Source: Nitrospirota bacterium (GTDB lineage Bacteria; Nitrospirota; UBA9217). Taken from it: a DNA stretch of 64,000 nt. The notes below the pieces were generated by a model, which saw nothing but the letters and a program-made list of their open reading frames with translations, was not told the DNA's origin and ran no database searches. This document shows, one piece after another, positions 52,555 through 60,316 of this stretch. The stretch's first letter is position 1, and each line of letters begins with the position of its first letter. The stretch spans positions 960,001 through 1,024,000 of the forward strand of contig CAVVUN010000015.1 of NCBI GenBank assembly GCA_963751455.1, read 5' to 3'. The translations under genes were made by a program, and so were the position numbers.

Positions 52555-54654
52555 ATGCCAGATAGAAAAAACATACTGTCTGTTTCCTCGCAGTACATTC
52601 GCCGCATTATAGACTGGTGGTTTACCAGTATAGCATTCAGGGTCTCCTTCTTCATGTCCGCCGCACTTACCGTCGTCGCTCTCCTGATCGGGGCATTCTT
52701 TTTCTGGCAAGGGGAAAAAGCACTCGACTCGGAGATCCGGGGCAGGGCACTTTATGTTGCAAAAGACGTGTCTGCGTCGAGCGTCGATGATATCCTTACC
52801 GTTAATAAGCTTGAGATTTATAAAAAACTCACCTCTCTCTTCACCGCGAACCAAGATTCTCCCTGGGGAAGCGATCTGCTGTATATCATGGCGTATAACC
52901 ATACCGGGGAATTGCTTATCGGAAGAAGCACTCATGATGTTTTTTTTAATAGTGACTCTTATTTTTACATGCAGCCCTCCAGCGATCGATCCTTTTTAGA
53001 TGATATATCTCTCACTCCGGAAGCGCTCAAAGTCAAAGGCCATATTTTCATAGTTCAAAAACCGGACATCTATGATTTAACGTTTCCGGTTATGACCGGA
53101 AGTGACCGAGTCGGCTTTATTCGTGTCGGGATTTCCGGACAGCGACACTCCGAAAAATTTTCTAACATCATGAAACAAGCACTAATCTCTCTTCTGGTCA
53201 TGCTTCTCATAGGCATGGCATTCAGCCAGATTATTGCCCGCGGCATAACACGGCCGATACTACGCCTGAGCGAGGCTGCAGAAAACCTGAGTCGTCAAAA
53301 TTGGGGCAGCCCGCTGCCTGTGAAAGGCAGAGACGAGATCAGCAAGCTAAGCCACGCTTTTAATCAGATGGCAATGAATCTCAATCAGCGGGAACACAGC
53401 CTGTCGCGCGGAAACAAGGATCTGTTTATTCTTCATACAGCCGGCTTGGACCTTATGGAGAGCCTTGAAATCGATACCCTGCTCCTGAAGATAGGAGCCC
53501 GCGCACAGGATCTGGTAAGGGCCGATACGACGTCGGTAGCGATCGTAGACGGGAATGAACGCGTTTTGAAGTATATAGGGGTATTGGGAAGTAAAGCAAC
53601 GTCGCTTAAGGAGATGAACATGCCGCTCGAGTCTGGCGGTATTTATAATTGGCTTGCCTGTTACGGCACACCGCTTCTCATTGCCGATGCGCAAACCGAT
53701 TTTCGGCTTGAAAAAAGCACTATGGCAGCGCTTGGCATCAATTCTCTCATGACGGTCCCCCTCTGGTCCTCAAACACTATGACCGGCCTTCTTACTGCCG
53801 TAAATAAGAAAGGCGGCGCCTGTTTTGACAAGCATGACCTTCGTCTTTTTACGGTTTTTTCCAATCTTGCCGCGGCTGCACTGCAGAATGCGTCTCTGTA
53901 TACCGATTTAACCGGAAAAATGAACGAGCTCCGAGCCGCCCAAGAACAACTGATTCACTCAACAAAGATGGCTGCAATCGGCGAACTGGCTGCAAACGTT
54001 GCCCATGAAGTCAACAATCCGTTAACGAGCGTGCTTGGTTATACGACGCATCTCCTCAAGACGCTGGATCTTCCCGAATCCGCCAAGCGAATTCTTGGCA
54101 TGATGGAACAAGAGACGCTCAGAGTGAGAAAAATAATCCGTAATCTACTCGATTTTTCTCGCCAGAAAACAGGATGGATGAGACCTTATGATATTCTACT
54201 GCCGTTAAAAGAGACGGTCGCTTTCGTGCAGGGCGCAGCGGCGGCGTCATCGGTCAAAATCACTGAAGACTATTCAGCATGCCCGACAATTGTTACTATG
54301 GACCCAAATGCGATGAAGCAGGTTTTTATCAACATTATTAATAATGCGCTGCAGGCAATGCCCGATGGCGGCGTGCTGTCTGTCCGGGCTACGACCGAAA
54401 ATGACAATCAAGTCGTGATCTCATTCCAGGATACAGGACTGGGAATATTGCCGGAAAATATGAAAAAGATATTTGAGCCTTTTTTCTCGACAAAAGAGAG
54501 CGGAGACGGAACCGGTCTTGGACTTTCGATCAGCTACAGTATTGTAAAAAATCATGGCGGCAGAATTGATGTCGAGAGCAACCTCGGCACCGGCAGCGTA
54601 TTTAAGATCTTTCTACCGCTATTTAAAAATCCGACATATGCGCTTAAACAGTAA
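52555..54654 (+). CDS. Membrane sensor histidine kinase (2 TM, HAMP, GAF, HisKA, HATPase)
   Basis: Intact H-box AHEVNNPL, N-box INNALQAM, DTGLG, FEPFFSTK, GTGLGL. Confidence 0.93.
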   Translation: MPDRKNILSVSSQYIRRIIDWWFTSIAFRVSFFMSAALTVVALLIGAFFFWQGEKALDSEIRGRALYVAKDVSASSVDDILTVNKLEIYKKLTSLFTANQDSPWGSDLLYIMAYNHTGELLIGRSTHDVFFNSDSYFYMQPSSDRSFLDDISLTPEALKVKGHIFIVQKPDIYDLTFPVMTGSDRVGFIRVGISGQRHSEKFSNIMKQALISLLVMLLIGMAFSQIIARGITRPILRLSEAAENLSRQNWGSPLPVKGRDEISKLSHAFNQMAMNLNQREHSLSRGNKDLFILHTAGLDLMESLEIDTLLLKIGARAQDLVRADTTSVAIVDGNERVLKYIGVLGSKATSLKEMNMPLESGGIYNWLACYGTPLLIADAQTDFRLEKSTMAALGINSLMTVPLWSSNTMTGLLTAVNKKGGACFDKHDLRLFTVFSNLAAAALQNASLYTDLTGKMNELRAAQEQLIHSTKMAAIGELAANVAHEVNNPLTSVLGYTTHLLKTLDLPESAKRILGMMEQETLRVRKIIRNLLDFSRQKTGWMRPYDILLPLKETVAFVQGAAAASSVKITEDYSACPTIVTMDPNAMKQVFINIINNALQAMPDGGVLSVRATTENDNQVVISFQDTGLGILPENMKKIFEPFFSTKESGDGTGLGLSISYSIVKNHGGRIDVESNLGTGSVFKIFLPLFKNPTYALKQ

Positions 54655-54695
54655 AGGGCGATGAACACAACGCGTGAGGTAGCTGATATAATGCA

Positions 54696-56132
54696 ATGAA
54701 AAGAAGACTACTGATAGGATTCATTTCCCCGCTGCTTATTTTTTTAATCGGAACTCTTATTGCGGCGATTTATATCACCAAGACCACTCAGCGGATGGAC
54801 CAGTTGATCCTGCTCCACCGTGTTGAGCTTTTGCGGGAAGATCTTATCATCCGTATTCAACATGTGCAATCAAATATTATTCTTAACAAAACGCGAAACC
54901 AGAGTGATGTCGATGCACTTCTCGTCCACATGCAGGAGATCGATAAGGTGATGGATTCTTGCCTCGGTTGCCATCATTCCCCTGAATTGAGCCAAGGCCT
55001 TCACGGAATGCGGGACGTGGCTAACGATTACAAGTCGGCAATCGGCGGGCTGGTTAACGCATCTGTCAAGCCGGTAATGGCCGAGGCACGGGAACGAAGG
55101 GCCCAGTATATGGGACAGGAGCTCATTACCATGGCGCAGGGAATGGCATTTACGGCGAATGTCAGACTCCAGAAAAAGACACAGGAAATGATGGCCACTT
55201 TGCGAGACGTCAGTACTGTTTTGTATGCCACGCTTTTATTTGGTTTTCTTCTTGCAATCGCGATTTCCGCTTTTTTGGCGAAAAGCTTCGACAGAAGAGT
55301 CGAGTCGCTTGTCGCGGCAATCAGGCGAATTTCGCGCGGAGAACTCGAGTATAGAATACCGAAAACGGAGAGTGCGATCAGCGGTTTTCGGGAGCTGGGA
55401 GAGGCATTTAACGAAATGGCCCGCGCATTGCGGCGGGATCAGCGACAATTGGTGCAAAGCGCAAAACTGACCGCGATTGCGGATCTGGGAGCAAGTATCG
55501 CCTATGAAGTCAATCATCCGTTGAACGCAGTTCTCGGCTATACCGGCCACTTATTAAAGTCCGATGATCTCCCAGCCGACAAAAAGGAGCAGCTTAAGAC
55601 CATAGAGCGAGAAACTTTACGGGCAACAGAAATTACCAAGAACCTTCAGAAGTTCGTGAATCGGAAACCGCTTCGTATGCAGAAGGCTGATGTTCGCGCA
55701 ATGATGCGCGAGGTCGTGGAACATGTCAAAAAGCGGCAATTGTCAAATATTAAGTGCATCATGGATTGCGCGGATCCGCTCCTTCCCGTTTCCCTTGACG
55801 CGGACCTCATGAAACAGGTCTTTCTCCATCTGGTTGACAGCAGTTTACGACAGATGCCGAACGGCGGTCTATTAACTATTCGGTGCAAATGCGAACGGGA
55901 TATGTTCGGCAGAGACTTTACGGCAATTGAGTTCACGGACAACGGGGCAGGAATTCCCGATCCTCAATTGGATAAAATATTTGACCCACTGTTCAACACT
56001 CGGCTGGAAGGAGAGGGAACCAGCCTCGCGCTTGCAATGAGTTACCTGATTGTGCAAAACCACGGTGGACGCATAGAAGTAGAAAGCAAAGTGGGCTCGG
56101 GTTCATCATTCCGCGTTATTTTGCCGATGTAA
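54696..56132 (+). CDS. Histidine kinase-like sensor with periplasmic CxxCH and degenerate catalytic boxes (pseudokinase)
   Basis: CLGCH between two TM helices; HAMP; H-box AYEVNHPL; N-box VDSSLRQM; G2 GTSLAL. Confidence 0.85.
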   Translation: MKRRLLIGFISPLLIFLIGTLIAAIYITKTTQRMDQLILLHRVELLREDLIIRIQHVQSNIILNKTRNQSDVDALLVHMQEIDKVMDSCLGCHHSPELSQGLHGMRDVANDYKSAIGGLVNASVKPVMAEARERRAQYMGQELITMAQGMAFTANVRLQKKTQEMMATLRDVSTVLYATLLFGFLLAIAISAFLAKSFDRRVESLVAAIRRISRGELEYRIPKTESAISGFRELGEAFNEMARALRRDQRQLVQSAKLTAIADLGASIAYEVNHPLNAVLGYTGHLLKSDDLPADKKEQLKTIERETLRATEITKNLQKFVNRKPLRMQKADVRAMMREVVEHVKKRQLSNIKCIMDCADPLLPVSLDADLMKQVFLHLVDSSLRQMPNGGLLTIRCKCERDMFGRDFTAIEFTDNGAGIPDPQLDKIFDPLFNTRLEGEGTSLALAMSYLIVQNHGGRIEVESKVGSGSSFRVILPM

Positions 56133-56216: not shown

Positions 56217-57734
56217 ATGGCTAGCGAAAAAATACTTGTTGTAGATGACGAGGAAATGATCAGAGACCTATGCAGTCATATTTTGACTGCGGAAGGATAC
56301 CAGGTCACCATAGTTTCAAACGGAGCTGCGGCGCTCGAAGAACTGAGCCGTCACGATATGGATCTTCTTATCACGGATATCAAAATGCCGGGTATGGACG
56401 GACTTGAGTTATTTGAACGGGTCAAACAGCTAAACCAGGACATAGTAACAATATTCATAACCGGCCACGGGACCCTGGACACTGCGATCGAGTCCCTTAT
56501 GCGCGGTGTGGACGGATTCGTACTGAAGCCATTTACGCAGGAAGAAATCCTGGCAGCAGTGGAACGTGCCATAACGCGAAGCAGACTTCAGAATGAAAAT
56601 ATCCGGCTCAAGGCCTTGATCCCTCTCTTCGAAATCAGTAAACTGCTTGTCACTGAAATTGATCTGGCCCATCTTTTCAAGATCATTACCGAGGTCCTTG
56701 TTCAAGAGTTTTCTGTGGACCGGGTATCTTTAATGCTTGTGGACGAGGCTAGCGGAGATCTCATCATACGTGCTTCTCACGGGCTGCCGGCGGAATTGGC
56801 TATGAAATCCCGCCGGAAACCCGGACAGGGAGTATCGGGTCTGGTACTCAAGAACAGGAAACCGCTTATTATATCAGCAGGAAAACATCCGGCGCCCGAT
56901 GTAATGGCGGCCATCAACGTCGAAGATATGCCGGTATCCTCTATGTCGGTGCCGCTCATCGGGAAAAACAAGGTGTTCGGCGTATTGAATGTGAGTAAAT
57001 ATACCGGTTCGCCGTTCAGCGCAAGCGATCTCCAGATAGTACTTATTCTGTCAAGTCAGGTAGTGACTGCCATGGAGAACGCGGCGCTCTATGAAGATTT
57101 ACGCGAGAATTATTTCCGCACCGTTCAGGCGCTCGTAGCGGCCGTCGAAGCAAAGGATCCGTACACCCGCTGGCATTCCACAAATGTCGCAAAGTACGCT
57201 GTGGCGATTGCGCGCGATCTGGGAATGAGCCCGACTCAACTTGAGGAAATGCATATTGCGGCGATTCTCCATGATGTCGGAAAAATCGGTATCAGCGAGG
57301 TGATCATCAGCAAACCTGACCGGTTGAGCCGCGAGGAATTCGACATTATGAAGGATCACCCTGCTCACGGCATACGAATTCTGGAGCCGATCGGATTCTC
57401 CACAGCCATAATTAACGCCATATATCAGCATCACGAACGTTACGACGGGAAAGGATACCCGAGAGGCCTGGCCGGGGAGGAGATCAGTCTTGCAGCACGA
57501 GTTCTCAACGTTGCCGATACCATTGACGCTATGGTCTCCGAACGGCCATATCGCGGTACAATATCGAGCATGGAGGTTCTCGCGGAACTCGAGCGGGAAT
57601 CCGGAGGACAGTTTGATCCGAAGGTGACAGAATCGGCGAGAAGACTGATAGAAAAAGGTCTGCTTAAGCTGGGGATGCGCACGTATTACCAATATACAGC
57701 AGGCACCGATAAAGAGGGGAAAAAGGCGCAGTAA
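56217..57734 (+). CDS. REC-GAF-HD-GYP response regulator, c-di-GMP phosphodiesterase
   Basis: VVDDE and TDIKMPGMDG receiver; GAF; HDVGK, HHERYDGKGYP. Confidence 0.93.
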   Translation: MASEKILVVDDEEMIRDLCSHILTAEGYQVTIVSNGAAALEELSRHDMDLLITDIKMPGMDGLELFERVKQLNQDIVTIFITGHGTLDTAIESLMRGVDGFVLKPFTQEEILAAVERAITRSRLQNENIRLKALIPLFEISKLLVTEIDLAHLFKIITEVLVQEFSVDRVSLMLVDEASGDLIIRASHGLPAELAMKSRRKPGQGVSGLVLKNRKPLIISAGKHPAPDVMAAINVEDMPVSSMSVPLIGKNKVFGVLNVSKYTGSPFSASDLQIVLILSSQVVTAMENAALYEDLRENYFRTVQALVAAVEAKDPYTRWHSTNVAKYAVAIARDLGMSPTQLEEMHIAAILHDVGKIGISEVIISKPDRLSREEFDIMKDHPAHGIRILEPIGFSTAIINAIYQHHERYDGKGYPRGLAGEEISLAARVLNVADTIDAMVSERPYRGTISSMEVLAELERESGGQFDPKVTESARRLIEKGLLKLGMRTYYQYTAGTDKEGKKAQ

Positions 57735-57778: not shown

Positions 57779-58369
57779 TTATTGTCTGACTTTGATCTTG
57801 ACACGTTCGTCCAGCGTAAACAGCACCTTCTGTTTAAATTTTTTTCCCGTAAGCGAGAGAACGAGTAGGAACGCGACGGAAAAGCCCAAGGAATTGAAAA
57901 TGACGTCATGATTTCCAATCAGGTTGGCGAGAACCATACCAGGCAGTATGATCGTAGCCAGGAGCCAGCCTTCCCAATATCCACAATAGTATGCTTCTTT
58001 GCCTGCCATTCCAGCCGCTCCAGCGCAAACTAAACCGATCCCGACTAGCAGCAGTGTTCCAACGTACTGCTCCGGACCATAAAAATATGCGGTCGTTTGA
58101 ATTATCAAGCCTGATATAACCGTGCAAACAATACATATCTTTATTGGACGCATCCAGACGAGAAGATAAAGGGCTGAAAGCAGTACGCCGAGCTCGAAAA
58201 GCATAATACCTGCAGTATAAAAAGCGTTTTGCAGAGGATAGAGTATTGCGAGAACGGCTGCTCCAAGAACTTGTATGGCGAGCCCTGACCGGTACAATAT
58301 GTCGTGTCGTCGACAGTATTTAAGGCCGGCCATCGCAATTTGTTCTTCGAGGCTTGGTTTTGTGGTCAT
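57779..58369 (-). CDS. Integral membrane protein, DUF2301-like
   Basis: About 6 hydrophobic segments; LYRSGL and GMAGKEAYYC recalled as DUF2301-like motifs. Confidence 0.65.
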   Translation of the reverse strand: MTTKPSLEEQIAMAGLKYCRRHDILYRSGLAIQVLGAAVLAILYPLQNAFYTAGIMLFELGVLLSALYLLVWMRPIKICIVCTVISGLIIQTTAYFYGPEQYVGTLLLVGIGLVCAGAAGMAGKEAYYCGYWEGWLLATIILPGMVLANLIGNHDVIFNSLGFSVAFLLVLSLTGKKFKQKVLFTLDERVKIKVRQ

Positions 58370-58556
58370 CAGCCTTTATAGCATGAGTTCATTTTGAATG
58401 CAATAAGAACAAAAAGTATCGCGGCAAAATTACGTATAGCAAAACGACAGCCATTCAAAATCTCTTCCTCCTTGCAACGTGATGTCTTCTAATTCCAGTT
58501 TCGATAAATAGCAACAAGAGTAATGATTCTAATTAATCAAAGAAAAAAATTCTTTC

Positions 58557-58585
58557 TTGACTTGGATATACGACTTTGGTATATT
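58557..58585 (+). promoter_or_regulatory. sigma70 promoter with extended -10, about 450 nt upstream of the porin
   Basis: TTGACT-N17-TATATT preceded by TGn. Confidence 0.7.
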
Positions 58586-58637
58586 CTGCGTAATGTTTTA
58601 AAGACTTCTTTTTCAAATTAAATCCTGTCTCTTTTTT

Positions 58638-58911
58638 GATACATCGTGAAGTAGGCAACTCGTTAACAGCGACAAGTAATAGTGGTAGATTCGGTGTTTA
58701 TTAATCTATGAGAAAACCCACTATAAGCTCACGATATCGCAGTTTTTACTCACCTTACAGTCACGCCGGCATTTCTCAGCGCGTTTTCGCCGACAAATAC
58801 ATCACCATCAATAGTCACCGTTTAAAACCGGAAATTCACATGACCTGCTGTTTACCGTTTCATGTATACACGGTTTGCCTATCCAAGTGGTAATGAAAGG
58901 AGGGATGTATT
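58638..58911 (+). ncRNA. Candidate structured leader RNA / ncRNA of unknown family
   Basis: Several local stems plus five nested long-range complementary segments (see findings); downstream of a good promoter. Confidence 0.5.
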
Positions 58912-59035
58912 AAATCTCTTTGATCTTCTCGGCAAAACAGAGCAACTGCAGCATCGTTTCAAAGCTAGAGCATATCCGGAAGTTTGAACATGTTTCGGAT
59001 GGTCCGGAACAAAACTACATTAGGGAGGATAAACG

Positions 59036-60316
59036 ATGAAGAAGTTTGTTGTTTTACTCGTAGTTGTGGCTTTGACTTTTATCAGCGCAATAGCATATGC
59101 CGCAGATGTGACGGTTGGCGGAACGGTACAGATCCGGAGCAGGAATTTCGACACTATGTCTTTCGATGAAAAGGTCGTAACCAAGGACGAAAAAGACACG
59201 CAGGAAAGAATCCAGATGGACATCAATGCCAAAGCAGGAGATGTTAAAGGCAAGATCGCGATCTGGAACGATTTCGATACGTGGGGAAGATTTGAAGCAG
59301 TGCAGGGCATTGCATCGGGAACAACAGTAACGACTACAGCGGGTGATTCCACACAGACGTACAACAATAACAAGATCGGCATCCGCGAGGCATGGGTCAA
59401 TTTCAACGTGCCGGGGCTCCCGATTAACGTGACTGCCGGTCATCAGCTCCTGAAGCTTGCCAACGGCTTTTTCGTCAGTTCGATGCATTTCGGTTCCGAT
59501 GCATGGGTAATAGCGAACCAGACGGGAAACAACACTTTTGCTGTTGTTAACGGGAAAATCGCTGAGAACACGACGAGCCTTTCAGACGACCAGGATCTTT
59601 ATACTATCCTCGATGTCTTTAAGCTTAGCGACAATGCGACGATCGGCGTTGATTTTTCTAACGTCAAAGATCGTTCGGGCGCGGACCAGGTGGACCTGAT
59701 GAATGTCGGTATCAATTTTAACGGTAAAATCGGCCCGGTTGCACTTAAAGCCCAGTTCGATCAGAACATGGGAGACAAAACGACCGGAGGGACCGTAAAG
59801 CAGGACTTTACCGGTAATGAAATCGTAGTCCAGGGCAAAGTTCCGATCGCGCCCGTTACGCTCAACTTCACGTTTGCAATGGGTTCCGGCCAGGACACTT
59901 CCAGCGACGTTACCCTGTTCCAGAACTTCCTGGATGTTGATCCGCATGTCGCCTTTATGTATGAGTATAAGATACCGACAGCAGCCGGAAGGAAAAACAC
60001 AGGCTTCGCGAACACGACGGCTATCGGCGTGGGAGCAACCATGGCGGCATCCAGCAGCGTGACCGTAGGCGCTGATCTCTGGCTGTTAAGCGCCTCTGAA
60101 AAAGTGAATGTAACTCAAACCGGCAGAGCTGCAGGTGCGGTCTCCGATGATGTGGGCACGGAAATAGACTTGGCCGTTAATTGGAAAGTGGCCGAGAACC
60201 TGACCTGGAACTGGAACGTCGGCTACTTTATGCCTGGCGATGCGTATCTTGATGCGACCGGCGCAGGCGACGATGCCGCTACCGGTATTACGGGCATCCT
60301 CGCGTTCAAGTTCTAA
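59036..60316 (+). CDS. Outer-membrane beta-barrel porin (OmpJ/alginate-export-like)
   Basis: Signal peptide ending AYA; alternating beta-strand pattern; C-terminal ILAFKF; RBS GGGAGG; strong terminator. Confidence 0.85.
   Translation: MKKFVVLLVVVALTFISAIAYAADVTVGGTVQIRSRNFDTMSFDEKVVTKDEKDTQERIQMDINAKAGDVKGKIAIWNDFDTWGRFEAVQGIASGTTVTTTAGDSTQTYNNNKIGIREAWVNFNVPGLPINVTAGHQLLKLANGFFVSSMHFGSDAWVIANQTGNNTFAVVNGKIAENTTSLSDDQDLYTILDVFKLSDNATIGVDFSNVKDRSGADQVDLMNVGINFNGKIGPVALKAQFDQNMGDKTTGGTVKQDFTGNEIVVQGKVPIAPVTLNFTFAMGSGQDTSSDVTLFQNFLDVDPHVAFMYEYKIPTAAGRKNTGFANTTAIGVGATMAASSSVTVGADLWLLSASEKVNVTQTGRAAGAVSDDVGTEIDLAVNWKVAENLTWNWNVGYFMPGDAYLDATGAGDDAATGITGILAFKF

Follow-up and report, generated by a model that had tools for sequence, protein, structure and literature searches.

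Should a histidine kinase gene whose own phospho-accepting histidine is gone be regarded as a working receptor or as the remains of one? This question is raised by an open reading frame in a 64,000-nucleotide stretch of Nitrospirota DNA (contig CAVVUN010000015.1), referred to here as the window. Natural histidine pseudokinases of known role are few, and a core without its histidine may serve as a phosphatase, as a trap for the response regulator or as a partner of another kinase. An earlier note on the window, made from the letters alone, had proposed a catalytically dead redox or gas sensor that acts allosterically in the manner of DivL.

The pseudokinase gene and its motifs

The frame (54696-56132, plus strand, as are the features of the window given below up to 57734) translates without a stop into 478 amino acids, arranged as a first transmembrane segment, a four-helix sensor with a CxxCHH motif, a second transmembrane segment, HAMP, a DHp domain with Tyr270 and a CA domain. 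HAMP, HisKA and HATPase_c are its only Pfam matches, with PF00512 and PF02518 above the cut-off, and the 25 NCBIfam entries listed include none above the cut-off for this protein. The model of the kinase core matches the cores of ZraS and HK853. Two hydrophobic segments at residues ~5-23 and ~175-193 flank a domain of 145 residues (29-173; 54780-55214), for which no Pfam match was found at E 0.1. Because CLGCH (residues 89-93, 54960-54974, followed by H94) is located between these two segments, a periplasmic position can be assigned to it, as had been claimed before.

In the H-box (ASIAYEVNHPLN, 55491-55526) the codon TAT at 55503 places Tyr270 in AYEVNHPL, where the neighbouring kinase has AHEVNNPL. 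The N-box reads HLVDSS (55827-55844; family consensus NLINNA) and the G2 box GTSLALA (56016-56036; family consensus GTGLGLS), the lesions being N382S, G443S and G445A. All three boxes were thus described correctly in the earlier note, and the G1 box DNGAG (D415, G417, G419; 55938-55952) is intact. The fourth sign of decay seen there, an F-box reading LFNTR, stands only in part: the motif is present, but its Arg is typical of the family (R in 101 of 120 sequences), and only F432L is private to the window copy. Compared to a canonical HisKA kinase the DHp and CA domains are present, while the phospho-accepting His, the N-box Asn and the G2 glycines are missing. The phosphatase motif E/D-x-x-T/N is missing as well, its H+4 position being occupied by His274. 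The frame is maintained, and the lesions do not go back to a single base error.

Family-wide and private changes

To separate old changes from young ones, the window protein was aligned with the best 119 of 845 homologs (55-64% identical), the 845 being the hits among 7997 scored candidates. Position 270 is occupied by Tyr in 114 of the 119 homologs, by His in 3, by Cys in 1 and by Asp in 1. The other boxes are mostly intact: the N-box Asn382 is kept in 114/119, Gly443 of the G2 box in 119/119, Gly445 in 109/119, and the phosphatase residue Asn274 at H+4 in 117/119. The H-box change is therefore family-wide, and the losses of the N-box, the G2 box and the H+4 residue are private; N274H and T277N both occur in the window copy only among the 120 sequences. 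The idea that three boxes had decayed together has to be given up, since the exchange of His by Tyr is ancient and the loss of N-box and G2 box is restricted to the window genome. Whether orthologs keep the canonical boxes, which had been offered as a check, receives a divided answer: they do so for the N-box and the G2 box, and they do not for the H-box. Of the proposed catalytic death it can be kept that Tyr270 would exclude the usual autophosphorylation, but the box losses are of different age.

The codon at position 270 is TAC at 13 of 21 loci, TAT at 7 and CAT at 1. As both TAC and TAT are in use, Tyr has been held while its codon turned over, and judged from the sequences the exchange is ancient and selected in the family. 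For the DHp domain dN/dS was 0.01-0.04 in seven of the eight family pairs with estimable dS, and 0.29 in one pair.

The six core residues of ATP binding are intact in 105 of the 119 homologs. All eight residues of the ATP boxes are found in 83/119, and at 14 of 21 pseudokinase loci compared to 21 of 21 for the upstream kinase, HK1. On this comparison the ATP lid is repeatedly eroded within the family. The degenerate form, with N-box, G2 box and H+4 residue all lost, is known from one genome only.

When 40 proteins are compared by a tree of residues 1-250, which excludes the site itself, three His-bearing ones nest in a supported group of Tyr-bearing ones (96/97), and a His-bearing locus also nests among Tyr members in the tree of kinase cores. 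The His of this lineage likely represents a Tyr-to-His reversion and would provide a natural control. The lineage consists of locus L025 (genome G018) and the proteins P0058, P0060 and P0061; its G2 box is degenerate, and a binding protein was not detected. Elsewhere in the window genome a kinase-like frame on the minus strand (G000:C8:269085) carries Asn at the His position (RNEINNPL), with apparently intact ATP boxes.

Nitrospirota account for 30 of 31 related loci, one of which is from isolate UBA9217, and we infer that the family belongs to class UBA9217. According to PMC11033732 this class lives in aquifers and has the genes of the Wood-Ljungdahl pathway, dsrAB and norBC. One Nitrospirota-type locus (L047) stems from a record labelled Betaproteobacteria and is possibly mis-binned. 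A metagenome scan with the pseudokinase gave one relative at 59% and no close relative among 104 candidate stretches.

Origin of the gene

In a FastTree calculation with 178 kinase cores, 71 of them from the window genome, the cores of the pseudokinase and of HK1 form one clade as sisters (support 0.995). The DHp domains of the two proteins share 40-45 of 73 residues in 12 loci. The sensor has a different distribution. A profile search with it returned 298 relatives, and among the best 150 of these, 76 have a readable kinase core, with His in 74, Tyr in 1 (a family member) and Gly in 1; further relatives bear GGDEF or EAL motifs. Altogether the CxxCHH sensor domain was found in 92 of 301 genomes of the phylum. 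With a core that is sister to HK1 and a sensor that is widespread elsewhere, the pseudokinase is a chimera of both: a duplicate of the HK1 core was joined to a four-helix sensor that otherwise drives ordinary His kinases. The window genome encodes two more CxxCHH four-helix sensors, one on a His-bearing PAS kinase and one on a PAS-GGDEF-EAL protein (G000:C12:646165, L042:8403-10244; and G000:C15:1261609, L041:8505-11438).

The sensor domain and its heme motif

All 120 aligned sequences have the putative heme c attachment motif (C89, C92, H93, H94; 54960-54977). Of the best 150 among the 298 distant relatives, 149 extend over the site and every one of them has it, so the motif noticed earlier is real. 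The model of the sensor consists of four helices and no strand (pLDDT 81), with CxxCHH at the end of helix 2, which would be the end near the membrane. His41 on helix 1 is present in 139 of the 149 distant relatives. Going by the helix lengths, it should lie approximately level with CxxCHH, and His41 and His94 are candidates for the second heme ligand. With regard to maturation, the window genome has System II genes for heme c (PF01578 and PF05140 above the cut-off, with WWD-type motifs), the ResB and CcsA-type genes standing side by side on contig C15. An exported domain with CxxCH and the maturation genes are both found, and the pseudokinase is predicted to be a c-type heme protein. The motif could in principle also bind a metal or form a disulfide.

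Comparison to known structures points to a generic helical bundle. The best match of the sensor profile in a PDB sequence search had E 1.3. In the fold searches the best Foldseek match was Adeh_2942 (E 5.8e-4, TM 0.75), for which the accessible part of its paper mentions no heme. VIA-align gave Z values up to 14.9, a range that is common for bundles, and LytS was one of the structures matched (Z 14.2, rmsd 1.9, 117 residues aligned). No solved heme-bound relative was among the matches listed, an absence that carries no weight. Matches in the Atlas at 0.92-0.93 fall into CHASE3, TarH and 4HB clusters and serve as a lead only. A literature search that covered mainly papers outside subscription gave no account of this Tyr-for-His family or of its CxxCHH four-helix domain, and the accessible part of preprint 10.64898/2026.02.27.708494 had nothing on Tyr or pseudokinases.

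The locus

The operon of the window follows immediately on rplQ and comprises HK1, the pseudokinase and a response regulator. HK1 (52555-54654) is a canonical kinase with a weak sCache match, HAMP, GAF, HisKA with its His and an intact CA domain. The regulator (56217-57734) has the order REC-GAF-HD-GYP, with D54 and the HD and GYP motifs present. It is likely a c-di-GMP phosphodiesterase and the target of the pseudokinase. A scan for promoters and terminators gave 8 and 8 sites, compared to 9.1 and 7.1 expected.

The regulator adjoins the pseudokinase in 33 of 33 related loci, and HK1 lies upstream of it in 28 of 33, three of the five misses being contig ends. HK1 is present in 33 of the 35 genomes that have the pseudokinase compared to 15 of the 29 that lack it, counts in which kin are not independent. 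The two genomes with a pseudokinase and no detected HK1 are G002 (89% complete) and G005 (100%). At the locus of the former (L023), where a binding protein is not detected next to the gene either, a similar drift is observed, with YEVSSPLN in the H-box and HIIDNA in the N-box.

A full-length pseudokinase was found in 35 of 64 genomes of the family and not in 29, and there was none in 16 genomes of other families. At all four retrieved loci without the gene, HK1 abuts the regulator and no remnant is left. That the gene can be dispensed with is seen from 15 genomes that contain HK1 and lack the pseudokinase. In many relatives (e.g. L032:11389-14537) a PAS-PAS kinase and a sigma-54 regulator follow directly after the HD-GYP gene; both are missing from the window locus. 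The operon is followed, here as in many relatives, by two genes (57779-60316 in the window), one for a DUF2301-like membrane protein and one that is porin-like.

A binding-protein partner and its predicted docking patch

In 19 of 33 distinct related loci a gene for a phosphonate-type binding protein (PF12974) is located directly before the pseudokinase, a place taken in the window by a gap of 41 bases between HK1 and the pseudokinase (54655-54695). The subfamily has 27 matches in 25 genomes, 25 of which are separated by no more than 400 bases from a CxxCHH sensor downstream; conversely, 25 of the 40 CxxCHH sensors listed in those genomes have an adjacent binding protein. The single full-length exception is a second gene in G011 (C1:461577-462494, equivalent to L021:461577), 72% identical and beside no listed CxxCHH sensor. 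The closest solved relatives of the binding protein are PtxB/PhnD (E 1e-33), followed by HtxB, ArrX and AioX. Only the last ~44 codons of the gene are left between HK1 and the pseudokinase at locus L109 (G185:C102), so the loss is secondary there. At another locus (L039:4212-11796, G013) the binding protein, a canonical CxxCHH kinase and a sigma-54 regulator stand beside an NHL-repeat gene and a multiheme cytochrome, a neighbourhood that hints at respiratory control.

The window genome, which is 100% complete, has no match to the subfamily at 1e-30. It contains 14 other PF12974 matches, all less than 30% identical to the subfamily and none beside its three CxxCHH sensors. A PF12974 gene next to a kinase, as in AioXSR, is accordingly absent at the window locus.

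A complex was predicted from a relative's binding protein, two sensor domains and heme. It scored 0.73 compared to 0.00 for the best control, with at least 90% of contacts agreeing between runs and a partner pLDDT of at least 87. Of 157 solved pairs 116 come up to the mark used, and of 215 mismatched pairs only 2 do so; these counts are only roughly valid here, and the score may in part be due to likeness to solved complexes of binding proteins with four-helix domains. In the prediction it is the outer tip of the sensor that contacts the binding protein. The docking patch would be formed mainly by residues 113-128 (55032-55079) and for the rest by residues 68-83 (54897-54944), numbered as domain position plus 25.

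Within this patch S117, T121, A124, N125 and R128 are conserved across the distant family, and the window copy differs from the family by S117G, R118G, T121N, A124V and N125K. Altogether 7 of 15 conserved interface sites are changed compared to 12 of the 89 remaining sites of the domain (p 0.006). This enrichment depends on the cut-off: p is 0.019 at a looser cut, and at a conservation cut of 90% the difference is gone (2/7 compared to 9/74, p 0.24). Both paralogous sensors of the window genome are also altered at the predicted patch and retain CxxCHH. Two other genomes without the binding-protein subfamily show 6 and 4 changes at the 15 patch sites; at locus L067 the binding protein is present, yet 6 of 15 are changed.

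Rate and constraint of the window copy

At conserved sites 69 changes are private to the window copy, compared to 7 at the sister locus, and the 69 are distributed over all four regions. Its neighbours are not accelerated (HK1 21 compared to 16, the regulator 6 compared to 13), and rplQ shows no significant difference either. The tip rate of the window copy is 3.4 times that of control genes, a ratio that ranges from 0.6 to 1.9 in 21 other loci. That the loss of an adjacent binding protein speeds the gene up in general was considered and rejected, as the ratios are 0.9-1.9 without and 0.6-1.7 with the binding protein. On the window branch dS was saturated in most comparisons of dN/dS.

In simulations of neutral drift to an amino-acid change of 20% the frame stayed open in 7 of 300 runs. 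In a BLOSUM test the changes in the CA domain and the sensor are more conservative than expected under neutrality (p 0.003 and 0.047), and those in DHp and HAMP are not (p 0.29 and 0.57). L314T and L318Q are among the latter and sit badly with a retained dimer surface. Sites of the catalytic boxes are changed in 8 of 16 cases compared to 10 of 43 other conserved CA sites, a marginal difference (p 0.06). In the sensor, 5 of 51 near-invariant sites are changed, mostly conservatively, and CxxCHH, H41, R47 and Q58 are retained, as is the G1 box. Taken together the frame and fold of the window copy are still constrained, despite the fast branch.

Interpretation and rival explanations

For the family as a whole, a fixed Tyr, the retained E-x-x-N, a docking helix like that of HK1, a regulator that is always next to the gene and the co-occurrence with HK1 fit a dedicated phosphatase that opposes HK1. 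We therefore regard the family as a likely phosphatase brake on the adjacent REC-GAF-HD-GYP protein: HK1 would phosphorylate this regulator and the pseudokinase would dephosphorylate it, so that the breakdown of c-di-GMP would be set by a split pair. The binding protein is predicted to dock at the outer tip of the sensor, with the covalent heme nearer to the membrane. A Tyr core that only binds is known from DivL, so that Tyr at the His site does not by itself imply a phosphatase, and for the family as a whole a role in binding alone is about as open.

The window copy differs from its family in that the binding-protein subfamily is gone from its genome and that patch, phosphatase Asn, H+7 Thr, N-box and G2 box are changed, while it has kept CxxCHH, an open frame and a fold with conservative substitutions. 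With the Asn lost, T277N present, and a DHp domain like that of HK1 and the heme motif left over, a non-catalytic modulation of HK1 is favoured. Our tentative choice, which we hold with somewhat less than even confidence, is that the window copy is a predicted heme c receptor without catalysis that tunes HK1 by pairing; the state of the heme would be sensed and passed on by contact, most probably in a mixed dimer. A broader statement is rather unlikely to hold as a whole, namely that a two-input heme c sensor and a split phosphatase with Tyr for His characterize the family, and that in the window genome the partner was lost, the patch erased in all three sensors and the heme motif kept, leaving a purely allosteric redox or gas receptor.

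The main rival to this modulation of HK1 is a vestige under relaxed selection, which would have been without signalling since the loss of the binding protein and would be kept open and folded only against misfolding or a polar effect on the regulator gene. We consider this possible, although doubtful. It would account for the acceleration of every region with HK1 and the regulator spared, for the outlying tip rate, for the alteration of phosphatase, docking, ATP and partner-patch residues alike, for the 29 family genomes in which the gene was not found, and for the missing binding protein, PAS kinase and sigma-54 regulator at the locus. It has to explain why the heme motif, H41, R47, Q58 and G1 were retained and near-invariant sensor sites changed little and conservatively, why so few neutral simulations keep the frame and the BLOSUM test is conservative in CA and sensor, and why the gene is still there in a lineage capable of clean deletion. 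That the private changes are errors of assembly or sequencing is scarcely credible: they come from a single genome with a contamination figure of 5.37%, but they are limited to the pseudokinase with its neighbours spared, are conservative, cause neither frameshift nor stop, and in several cases lie two or three bases away from the sister codon.

Three further readings assign a different task to the core. As in DivL, it could bind, protect or sequester the phosphorylated regulator and report its state. For the window copy we hold this to be improbable: the same exchange of His by Tyr and a family docking helix that matches that of HK1 speak for it, whereas there are no PAS domains and no CckA-like target at the locus, the strictly kept H+4 Asn of the family would be superfluous for binding alone, and T277N is equivalent to an exchange that disrupts the binding of DivK (PMC4211667). 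The family pseudokinase could also lend its ATP-binding domain to a mixed dimer and phosphorylate the His of HK1 in trans, a role that would be lost in the window copy. The six core ATP residues, the near-obligate co-occurrence with HK1 and the precedent of FasB/FasC (PMC12675982) are in favour of this very improbable proposal; HK1 has an intact CA domain of its own, the full set of eight box residues is much less consistently kept than in HK1, and the repeated erosion of the ATP lid fits a phosphatase better. Relay proteins such as ChpT show that a CA fold can be conserved while ATP residues are lost. A conserved CA fold without ATP residues is also seen here, and the suggestion of the earlier note to test the His four residues downstream corresponds to a reading in which His274, one helical turn on, is a new acceptor, a phosphate sink or relay from the regulator or HK1, with the CA domain as scaffold. 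The H+4 position does face the phospho-Asp of the regulator in the CrdS model (PMC3510030). We nevertheless give this reading very little weight, because His274 is found in 1 of 120 sequences, needs a single base change, replaces the phosphatase Asn and thereby reads as a loss, and has a counterpart in another Asn-to-His exchange at position 378 that suggests drift.

Comparison with known systems

The likeness to DivL of Caulobacter, which had been drawn earlier, holds for the Tyr that replaces the phospho-His of a HisKA core, with no autokinase activity expected and the Tyr apparently selected. DivL is described as having neither kinase nor phosphatase activity and weak binding of an ATP analogue, and Y550H harms its function (PMC4211667). 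The likeness does not extend to the domain order, which has PAS domains in DivL and a periplasmic CxxCHH sensor, two transmembrane segments and HAMP here, nor to E-x-x-N, which the family keeps, nor to the origin, since the core arose independently from the adjacent kinase. By count from the Tyr, T277N of the window copy corresponds to T557N, which disrupted DivK binding in DivL (PMC4211667). In a ranking by sequence DivL is fifth, below ZraS and KinB. Membership in a DivL group was rejected, the core being sister to HK1 in a tree made without DivL and the neighbours being HD-GYP and GAF-kinase genes.

For the phosphatase function CrdS is the closest comparison. Its variant H371A keeps phosphatase activity: the half-life is 2.6 min, compared to 0.7 with the wild type and 53.5 when no enzyme is present. 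The Asn at H+4, on the other hand, is essential (PMC3510030). In NtrB and EnvZ the DHp domain alone suffices for this activity (PMC3510030). The Y-E-x-x-N of the family likewise combines the phosphatase residue with a missing kinase residue. The difference is that H371A was obtained by engineering a bifunctional enzyme, compared to a separate natural gene here, and that the window copy is without the Asn.

Catalytically incomplete proteins that act via a partner or as a scaffold are also represented by FasC, the ChrS pseudokinase that was engineered by evolution, and PsmA (PMC12675982, PMC9491836, PMC12963549). These have other sensors, phyla and lesions, and none is reported with heme c in the parts of these papers that are accessible. 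FasB/FasC (PMC12675982) and ChrS/HrrS (PMC9491836) provide precedents for a mixed dimer with a catalytically incomplete kinase, with the restriction that heterodimers of truncated ChrS were not detected (PMC9491836).

The partner of the family has its counterpart in AioX, which is a PF12974 protein as well, and in XylFII/LytS, where a binding protein binds a single four-helix sensor of LytS (PMC8050422). AioS differs by its sCache-like sensor, and in the accessible part of that account both AioS and LytS are described without heme motif or Tyr (PMC8050422). The window genome differs by the absence of the gene for an AioX-type partner.

Periplasmic CxxCH motifs in signalling proteins are known from sCache_heme (DUF3365) and from GSU0582 and GSU0935 of Geobacter, for which sensing of NO or redox state has been proposed (PMC12889525, PMC8396549, 10.64898/2026.05.25.727664), and Geobacter has further signal proteins with heme motifs (PMC8396549). 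The fold of sCache_heme, GSU0582 and GSU0935 is Cache or PAS-like, in contrast to the predicted all-helical bundle with its invariant second His (CxxCHH). An assignment to sCache_heme was rejected, the model being without the strands of a Cache alpha/beta fold and the domain without a Pfam match. The sensor described here would thus add an all-helical fold to the periplasmic heme c sensors of the cited papers. Within one operon the family provides a natural gradation of Tyr members, His revertants, a fully dead copy and clean deletions, and the kinase, regulator and binding protein that go with it are defined. To this gradation the window contributes a decay in two stages, a predicted docking patch, and the loss of this patch together with its partner.
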